Shown here piece after piece: positions 4,757-5,952 of a DNA stretch of 5,952 nt. The position numbers were made by a program, and so were the translations under genes. Location: the IMG/VR virus record IMGVR_UViG_2648501437_000007. One strand, written 5' to 3'. Source of the DNA: a virus (lineage: Duplodnaviria > Heunggongvirae > Uroviricota > Caudoviricetes). The notes beneath the pieces were generated by a model, which had not been told where the DNA came from, did no database searches, and was given only the letters and a program-made list of their open reading frames with translations. Numbering within the stretch: position 1 is the first letter of the stretch; every line of letters starts with the position of its first letter.

Positions 4757-5952
4757 ATGACAGTAAAAATTTCTGGCGTGCTTAAAGATGGCACAGGAAA
4801 ACCAGTACAGAACTGCACCATTGTGCTGAAGGCCAGACGAACCAGCAGCACGGTGGTGGTGAACACGGTGGCCTCTGAAAATCCGGATGAAGCCGGACGT
4901 TACAGCATGGATGTTGAGCATGGTCAGTACAGCGTCACCCTGCTGGTTGAAGGTTTTCCGCCTTCACATGCCGGGACCATCACCGTGTATGAAGATTCCC
5001 GACCCGGTACGCTGAATGATTTTCTCGGTGCCATGACGGAGGATGATGCCCGTCCTGAGGCACTGCGCCGTTTTGAACTGATGGTGGAAGAGGTGGTGCG
5101 TAACGCAGAGGAGGCGAAGAAGAATGCCGGAGAGGCGGAGACGTCAGCGAGGAATGCCGGCATATCAGCCAGTCAGGCAGAAGAGAGCGCGGCAAATGCT
5201 GACACTTCAGCAGGGGAGGCATCGGAGTCAGCCCGGCAGGCGGCAGAAAGTGCAGCCTCAGCAAAGCAGTCAGAGGAGGCGTCCTCGTCCTCGGCTTCTG
5301 CGGCCGCTCAAAAAGCCAGTGAGTCATCACAAAGTGCAGCAGAAGCTGAATTGTCAAGAAAGACGGCAGAAAGTGCAGCCGGTAATGCAGCCAGGGATGC
5401 AACGACCGCAACAGAAAAAGCCCGGGAGTCAGCAGAAAGCGCACAGTCAGCGGAACAAAGCAGGATAGCGGCGGAAGAAGCCGTAAACAGAATCCCCACC
5501 GTGGTGGGACCTCCCGGGCCAAAGGGGGAACAGGGGCCCGCGGGCCCTCAGGGGCCGAAGGGGGATAAGGGAGAGCGTGGCGACACCGGCCCTGTCGGGG
5601 CAACCGGCGAACGGGGACCGGCAGGTGATGCTGGTCCGGCAGGCCCGCAGGGGCCGAAAGGCGACAGGGGAGAGCGGGGAGAGACCGGTCTGACGGGAAA
5701 TGCAGGTCCACAGGGTCCAAAGGGAGATACCGGTGCGGCAGGCCCGGCTGGCCCACAGGGACCGAAAGGAGAAACAGGTGCGGCTGGCCCGGTGGGGGCA
5801 ACCGGACCTCAGGGGCCGAAGGGCGACCCGGGGGAGACGCAAATACGGTTCCGTCTGGGGCCGGGAAACATTATTGAGACAAACAGCCATGGCTGGTTCC
5901 CGGATACAGATGGCGCACTCATCACCGGACTGACCTTTCTTGACCCCAAAGA
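4757..5952 (+). CDS. stf: Side tail fibre protein Stf, 5' portion only (runs off the end of the window); N-terminal tail-attachment domain, Ala/Ser/Glu-rich segment, collagen-like Gly-X-Y domain
   Basis: ATG at 4757 with RBS GGTGG at 4746-4750; the frame is open to the end of the window. N-terminus [26 protein letters not shown]…[58 protein letters not shown] matches the conserved N-terminal domain of lambda Stf as I recall it, and the position after lom matches lambda gene order. Not listed in the supplied ORF track, presumably because it has no in-window stop. Confidence 0.85.
5507..5839 (+). repeat. Collagen-like triple-helix repeat: 37 uninterrupted Gly-X-Y triplets inside stf (9-nt periodic [12 protein letters not shown] units recur 5 times)
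   Basis: Translation [111 protein letters not shown], with Gly at every third position and no interruption. The DNA is GC-rich and periodic. Confidence 0.85.

Follow-up and report, generated by a model that had tools for sequence, protein, structure and literature searches.

Positions 4757-5952 of the window, by which we mean the whole 5,952-nt stretch of Caudoviricetes DNA analysed here (IMG/VR record IMGVR_UViG_2648501437_000007), very probably belong to an EPclA-type (enterohaemorrhagic Escherichia coli (EHEC) prophage collagen-like protein A) side tail fibre gene in a lambdoid prophage and comprise its first 398 codons, judging from its predicted domains and its alignment to known members. 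The protein type was described and biochemically tested in 2012; the finding is correct but ordinary, and already known. The features on which this assignment rests are collected in Table 1.

Position 5507 lies in a reading frame that is open from 4685 and has 4757 as its first ATG. All of the elements of the EPclA architecture are found in its translation: the PF08400 domain (PfN), an Ala/Ser-rich region (PCoil) close to the approx. 116 amino acids (aa) expected, a single uninterrupted collagen-like region (Col), and PF06820 (PfC) directly after Col. Residues 1-94 match the chain 9e7m_Ta, 'Tail fiber protein', of phage Ur-lambda in the PDB (also 9mgh; E=7.1e-49), i.e. the collar domain of the side tail fibre protein Stf. 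The gene also follows J and lom, and the identification as a side tail fibre made in an earlier inspection of the same DNA (hereafter the sequence-only reading) is thereby upheld. At the other end, the PF06820 match covers aa 363-397 (profile positions 1-35 of 64, E=4.3e-15, score 56.3 against a cut-off of 25 bits), and the domain is entire in the 99%-identical gene of relative L001 (aa 363-426, E=8.8e-36). The window protein is identical to ECs2717, an EPclA of the Sakai prophage Sp14, at 376 of 398 residues (94%) without gaps; the 22 substitutions lie mostly in PfN, and the sole difference within Col is GEQ in the window versus GEP in ECs2717. The fibre proteins of L001 and L003, the closest complete genomes (99.2% identical over window 212-5952), differ from that of the window at 4 of 398 residues.

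Table 1. Coordinates of the fibre gene, its domains and repeats, and the neighbouring features in the window.
Feature	Position	Strand	Remarks
Side tail fibre gene, probable EPclA architecture	4757..5952	+	5' 1196 nt, 398 codons; runs off the window end
PfN domain, aa 1-133	4757..5155	+	PF08400, E=1.9e-68, profile positions 1-133 of 134
PCoil, Ala/Ser/Glu-rich low-complexity region, aa 134-250 (117 aa)	5156..5506	+	Ungapped alignment to ECs2717 PCoil
Col, 37 Gly-X-Y triplets, aa 251-361	5507..5839	+	PF01391, E=3.3e-18; 110/111 residues identical to ECs2717 Col
PfC, putative C-terminal trimerisation knob, start only, aa 362-398	5840..5952	+	Cut by the window end
GPQGPKGD unit 1	5543..5566	+	Deletion junctions of alleles lie most often in the repeated units
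Longest exact internal direct repeat, 17 nt, CCTCAGGGGCCGAAGGG	5546..5562	+	Second copy 5807-5823
7-nt direct repeat GGGACCG	5614..5620	+	Second copy 5758-5764, 144 nt away
Tandem pair of 9-nt units, GGGGAGAGC GGGGAGAGA (GER-GET)	5667..5684	+	Only true tandem
Tail tip attachment gene J	458..3938	+	Pfam tip-attachment domains throughout; split ORFs 458-1351 and 1293-3938
lom, Ail/Lom outer-membrane protein gene	4006..4605	+	PF06316, E=4.3e-126
Terminator-like hairpin, 13-bp stem and T-run	4709..4738	+	Between lom and fibre gene, 19 nt 5' of the ATG; consensus scan only

ECs2717 is the gene cloned by Ghosh et al. (2012, PLoS One 7:e37872, PMC3368898), and was re-amplified and sequenced there. 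These authors described EPclA of O157:H7 prophages as a 437-aa protein of the order PfN-PCoil-Col-PfC, with a PCoil of 116 aa and a Col of 111 aa, present in many copies per genome. Col measures 111 aa in 13 of the 15 EPclA entries of their Table 2, other allelic lengths being 63, 78, 81, 114 and 144 aa, and a recurring GP(Q/P)-GPK-G(D/E) pattern was noted. The recombinant protein rEPclA forms trimers that dissociate on denaturation, displays the circular dichroism (CD) signature of collagen with a melting temperature of 42 °C, and undergoes a separate coiled-coil transition near 52 °C. PfC serves for trimerisation and refolding, re-nucleating the helix, and under electron microscopy (EM) the molecules are dumbbells, about 55-62 nm long, in which a hinge connects the thin Col rod (~30 nm) to the thicker PCoil (~16 nm) (PMC3368898). 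Since these experiments were made on a Col with 110 of 111 residues identical to that of the window, formation of a triple helix has already been demonstrated on essentially the same domain. Beyond domain order, motif and a single 111-aa Col, ECs2717 resembles the window gene in its position after J and lom and, as read in relatives of the window, in the 89-aa open reading frame (ORF) and type III secretion system (T3SS) effector genes downstream.

Fibres of this kind, whose occurrence in enterobacterial prophages the sequence-only reading had mentioned, are common there: of 5426 complete E. coli genomes, 712 contain the Col region (largely EHEC and Shiga toxin-producing E. coli (STEC), at a median of 10 places per genome), as do 296 phage records, mostly of Shiga toxin (Stx)-converting phages.

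The collagen-like region distinguishes this fibre from the side fibre of lambda. In the Ur-lambda virion (PDB 9e7m/9mgh, PMC12617516), gpV and gpM are contacted by a collar made of residues 1-91 of gpStfN, and each of the four trimeric side fibres is connected to three collar domains by flexible linkers. Lambda Stf resembles the window fibre in its N-terminal collar domain, in being encoded after lom and in forming trimers whose proximal part is an Ala/Ser-rich coiled coil, but it has no collagen, extends through modelled segments to residue 525 and a receptor-binding domain, and binds OmpC through a gp37-like distal part (PMC12617516). The window fibre instead has a collagen distal shaft ending in a PfC knob of about 75 aa. 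Pfam scans of the window protein and of its L001 counterpart gave no match to PF03406 (Pf2/gp37-like distal region), and no tfa gene is annotated near the fibre gene in L001, L002, L003, L004, Sakai Sp14, YYZ-2008 or CP-1639. Lambda Stf needs the Tfa chaperone. Recombinant EPclA trimerises without other phage proteins (PMC3368898). The appropriate label for the gene is an EPclA-type collagen-like side tail fibre and not a lambda-like Stf with an expected Tfa partner; beyond annotation, the assignment has little significance.

Two further groups of collagen-like proteins can be compared with the window fibre. EPclB, the tail protein of short-tailed Stx2 phages (933W / Sp5 ECs1228 type), has the same Col-PfC module together with PfN and PCoil; unlike EPclA, it has been proposed to bind YaeT/BamA. 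The Streptococcus proteins Scl1 and Scl2 and BclA of Bacillus anthracis likewise contain a hydroxyproline-free (Gly-X-Y)n helix nucleated by a globular trimerisation domain, with a repeat number that is polymorphic between strains, but they are cell-wall or exosporium proteins with other flanking domains, have Thr/Gln-rich X and Y positions, and lack a phage tail attachment domain.

Three other ORFs overlap the fibre gene, two of them antisense (minus strand, 4980-5801 and 5447-5890) and one in an alternative frame of the plus strand (5124-5468); they have no Pfam match and were taken as by-products of stop-poor GGN-CCN codons. An Rfam scan of the window gave zero matches.

Repeat structure and length variation of the collagen region

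Translation confirmed both the position and the count of the uninterrupted triplets announced by the sequence-only reading. The run is the longest of its kind in the protein, with glycine in 37 of 37 first positions over 111 aa, for which the probability of 37 consecutive in-register glycines arising by chance is ~1.6e-32 at the protein's own glycine fraction of 0.138. Proline occupies X in 18 of the 37 triplets and D or E most of the others, while Y is mostly K, R, A, T or Q. GPQGPKG(D/E) occurs five times (starting at nt 5543, 5642, 5705, 5750 and 5804) and the variant GPPGPKGE once (5507). Since these six units account for 18 of 37 triplets, the description of the run as built from reiterated GPQGPKGD/E units is only about half true, and fails for the remaining triplets.

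The further claim that the repeats are near-identical 9- to 27-nt units at the DNA level did not stand. The six 24-nt units agree at 16-21 of 24 positions (67-88%) and are dispersed at spacings of 36, 99, 63, 45 and 54 nt, not in tandem; apart from the 17-nt pair of Table 1, all exact internal direct repeats in Col measure 11 nt or less. The region has a G+C content of 72%, against 56% in the rest of the gene. A simple-sequence contingency locus, in which near-identical units lie head to tail and slip at high frequency, was considered and rejected because Tandem Repeats Finder returned weak, low-copy arrays only, the units being dispersed and diverged and the only tandem being of 2x9 nt.

The number of triplets nevertheless varies between alleles, in agreement with the sequence-only reading. 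The triplet comparison was run on 120 listed homologues, which are representatives of 90%-identity clusters, and Col runs among these span 4 to 38 triplets. When domains bounded by VNRIPTVV...QIRFR are considered, 44 distinct Col sequences are found among them, six with 37 triplets and 38 shorter (4-36). A single in-frame deletion from the window Col accounts for each of these 38 shorter variants, in which at most 5 substitutions remain and the repeat register is kept; in a few other homologues the frame is lost within Col. Deletion junctions fall mostly in (GPA)GPQGPK, GPVGAT or GER, and their mean ambiguity of 1.76 triplets, compared to 0.48 for random same-size deletions, was reached in none of 5000 simulations.

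Two indels can be followed at the nucleotide level. The 21-triplet allele of phage YYZ-2008 lacks precisely the 144 nt that separate the GGGACCG copies at 5614 and 5758, and in the 38-triplet allele of phage CP-1639 the 9-nt unit of 5667-5684 is present three times, so that the resolved indels use a 7-nt microhomology and the one 2x9-nt tandem. The 17-nt repeat pair flanks the segment absent from the 8-triplet alleles, which join unit 1 to unit 5. Variation of fibre length via repeat-associated indels is thus supported by the allele comparison, and the substrate appears to be short microhomology and not near-identical units.

An exact match to the 437-aa protein of a relative is absent from the protein collection. 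The homologue list is likewise without any 437-aa representative, and allele frequencies were accordingly taken from spread samples of genome and phage records. Of 60 complete E. coli genome records drawn from all parts of the ranking, 57 have as their best-matching place a 573-nt stretch that aligns to window 5380-5952 without gaps. In the 29 sampled phage records of the EPclA type, 37 triplets are present in 22 and 9 additional nt in 5; 1 lacks 144 nt, and 1 matches the query in part. The state of 37 triplets is modal in both samples.

The region preceding Col varies in length as well. Relative to window 5156-5506, homologues P0004-P0008, P0011 and P0017 lack internal segments of 28, 41 or 63 aa from PCoil, and the junctions lie in AESA/ARESAES-like repeats. 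The deletion of 41 aa occurs in 13 listed representatives; as 41 is not divisible by seven, it departs from the heptad rule of Ghosh et al.

Proposed assembly of the fibre and alternative explanations

The end of the gene can be read in relatives. In L001 and L003 it measures 1314 nt (437 aa), extends 39 codons beyond the window and ends in GSDTGRTGE, the sequence encoded by the EPclA reverse primer. It ends at the same point in L004, Sakai Sp14, YYZ-2008 and CP-1639, and the gene of phage ASU11 (L002) likewise encodes 437 aa. The sequence-only reading had directed attention downstream, to a C-terminal receptor-binding part and a tfa gene, and would have given way had the downstream sequence lacked any fibre C-terminal domain. 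PfC is complete in the genes of the relatives; it is, however, a small knob, and a large receptor-binding part is absent, as is an annotated tfa, in the closest relatives. A profile search with PfC against PDB sequences gave no credible match (best E=0.048), and an AlphaFold2 monomer of the last six triplets plus PfC, built on a 7-row, 96%-identical alignment, had a mean predicted local distance difference test score of 50.9, a quality insufficient for fold comparison.

An ORF of 89 aa begins 2 nt past the fibre stop (GGAGAATGACATG), with GGAG inside the fibre 3' end (L003:7316-7585). Copies are conserved in every relative examined (L001:10023-10292, L004:7316-7585, L002:6316-6585, L005 as ECs_2716, L006 and L007), and the pair of fibre gene and 89-aa ORF is present in Sakai Sp14, YYZ-2008, CP-1639 and phage ASU11. 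The encoded protein consists of a 27-aa Cys-containing leader and a diverged PfC (PF06820, E=1e-36), ~30% identical to that of the fibre. This PfC-only protein could be a tip partner or adaptor. The fibre gene and this ORF are separated by an inserted ISCro1 element in L001.

With these elements, a model of the fibre can be proposed in which three chains would form one fibre. The PfN domains would anchor it to the tail, and by homology with Ur-lambda Stf the 12 collar domains at the junction of tube and tip would correspond to four trimeric fibres. The shaft would be hinged. Its proximal part, to judge from the composition and alignment of PCoil, would be a coiled coil some 117 aa in extent (~16 nm); its distal part, by analogy with the published EM and CD data on EPclA, would be the 37-triplet collagen triple helix of about 30-32 nm. 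Stability without hydroxyproline may be provided by proline in X (18/37), together with charged D/E in X and K/R in Y. PfC would trimerise, nucleate the triple helix from the C-terminal end and sit at the distal tip, where it probably contacts the cell surface, directly or via a partner. Shaft length would change by ~0.87 nm per triplet and differ with the triplet number of the allele, and in-frame deletions and duplications between short direct repeats in this G+C-rich, repetitive coding sequence would be its source, presumably by slippage or microhomology-mediated recombination. The idea that a collagen triple helix sets the length of the shaft is thus retained as far as the helix is concerned, which has been shown for EPclA, but the shaft is not collagen alone, the coiled coil that precedes it being itself variable in length. 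Such fibres are found on prophages with genes for Shiga toxins and T3SS effectors, so the length of the shaft and the identity of its tip could affect the range of strains open to these phages.

Several points weigh against this account. No direct image of EPclA fibres on a virion was found in the papers examined. PfC hardly varies between alleles, an unusual property in a receptor-binding tip. The 437-aa length and the complete PfC of the window gene itself are deduced from its relatives. The alleles, which appear to fall into roughly 18 distinct junction classes, are phylogenetically non-independent, so that the junction statistic overstates the number of events. Finally, the J gene upstream is split by a single extra C near position 1222, relative to the intact 3480-nt gpJ gene of L001 and L003; this prophage copy may therefore be defective, and its fibre perhaps unused in its own virion.

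The last point underlies the most serious alternative, namely that the window derives from a decaying remnant, a defective prophage whose fibre gene is intact by chance or serves only as recombination stock for other lambdoid prophages of the same genome. Comparable splits or frameshifts of J in Sakai Sp14 and in L004, at positions other than in the window, the insertion sequence (IS) elements that adjoin fibre genes in relatives, and the median of 10 copies in genomes of this kind all lend it some credit. Nevertheless, the fibre ORF has remained open over 398 codons with 4 aa differences from relatives in which J is intact, and a single-base insertion in J could be a sequencing error. Even if the insertion is true, it alters the status of this copy and not the identity of the feature. 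We consider decay of the prophage possible, though distinctly the less probable explanation.

It is tempting to speculate that triplet number serves as a ruler tuned by adaptation, rather than reflecting neutral indel noise. With short direct repeats distributed over the Col coding sequence, lambdoid prophages could step fibre length from ~3 to 33 nm (4-38 triplets), which could match the depth of the O-antigen or capsule of the host, with the PfC knob and the co-translated 89-aa PfC-only protein as a distal adaptor. We regard this proposal as improbable.

A role in the service of the bacterium, i.e. that of a surface adhesin or host-interaction factor like Scl or BclA encoded by a lysogenic-conversion gene, appears very unlikely. 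Collagen-like surface proteins of pathogens do bind host matrix, and the question was left open by Ghosh et al.; moreover, the gene adjoins lom and, in relatives, lies upstream of T3SS effector loci, and BclA in the PDB matches the Col region, though only via the generic collagen repeat. However, the protein has no evident signal peptide or anchor, its N-terminus is the Stf collar domain, a terminator-like hairpin lies between lom and the fibre gene, which occupies the position of lambda stf in the late operon, and known expression is tied to phage induction.

The suspicion, also raised by the sequence-only reading, that the repeat length is an artefact of collapsed or expanded assembly is the least probable of all: the region is rich in G+C and internally repetitive, and its many copies at least 95% identical within a genome can be mis-joined in short-read assemblies, but exact internal repeats of at most 17 nt are too short to collapse reads, the 37-triplet length recurs without gaps in the 57 of 60 genome and 22 of 29 phage records sampled, and it is the same in ECs2717, which was re-amplified and sequenced. 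The caution to be retained for genome assembly concerns the many near-identical paralogous copies per genome and not the internal repeats.

Neighbouring genes and module exchange

By its predicted gene content and order (J, lom, fibre), the window is a distal tail module of a lambdoid prophage. In addition to the hairpin listed in Table 1, a second terminator-like hairpin with a T-run was predicted at 3957-3976, just before lom, from a consensus scan only. If these hairpins are functional, lom would be insulated from the late operon, and expression of the fibre gene would then need Q-antiterminated read-through or a promoter of its own.

In relatives, T3SS effector genes are found 3' of the fibre genes, including tccP/tccP2, espV, espJ, a gene for an EspF-repeat protein and nleG/nleH/nleF (L001:10419-12896, L003:10174-11946, L004:7698-13196, L005:8711-10702), with IS66-family and IS1 elements interspersed among them. 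The prophage of L001 and L003 ends at a tRNA-Ser gene, which in L003 is followed by hyaA.

Window 5521-5952, comprising Col from its fifth triplet and PfC, is ~96% identical at the nucleotide level to tail protein genes of short-tailed Stx2 phages (933W-like), where it corresponds to the second Col and PfC of EPclB. The Col-PfC module is thus shared and exchanged between tail types, of siphovirus-type and podovirus-type phages.

At the other end of the window, positions 1-457 contain no ORF of note. The first 211 nt do not align to L001 or L003, both of which match the window from 212 onwards, marking a mosaic boundary between the tail assembly gene and J.

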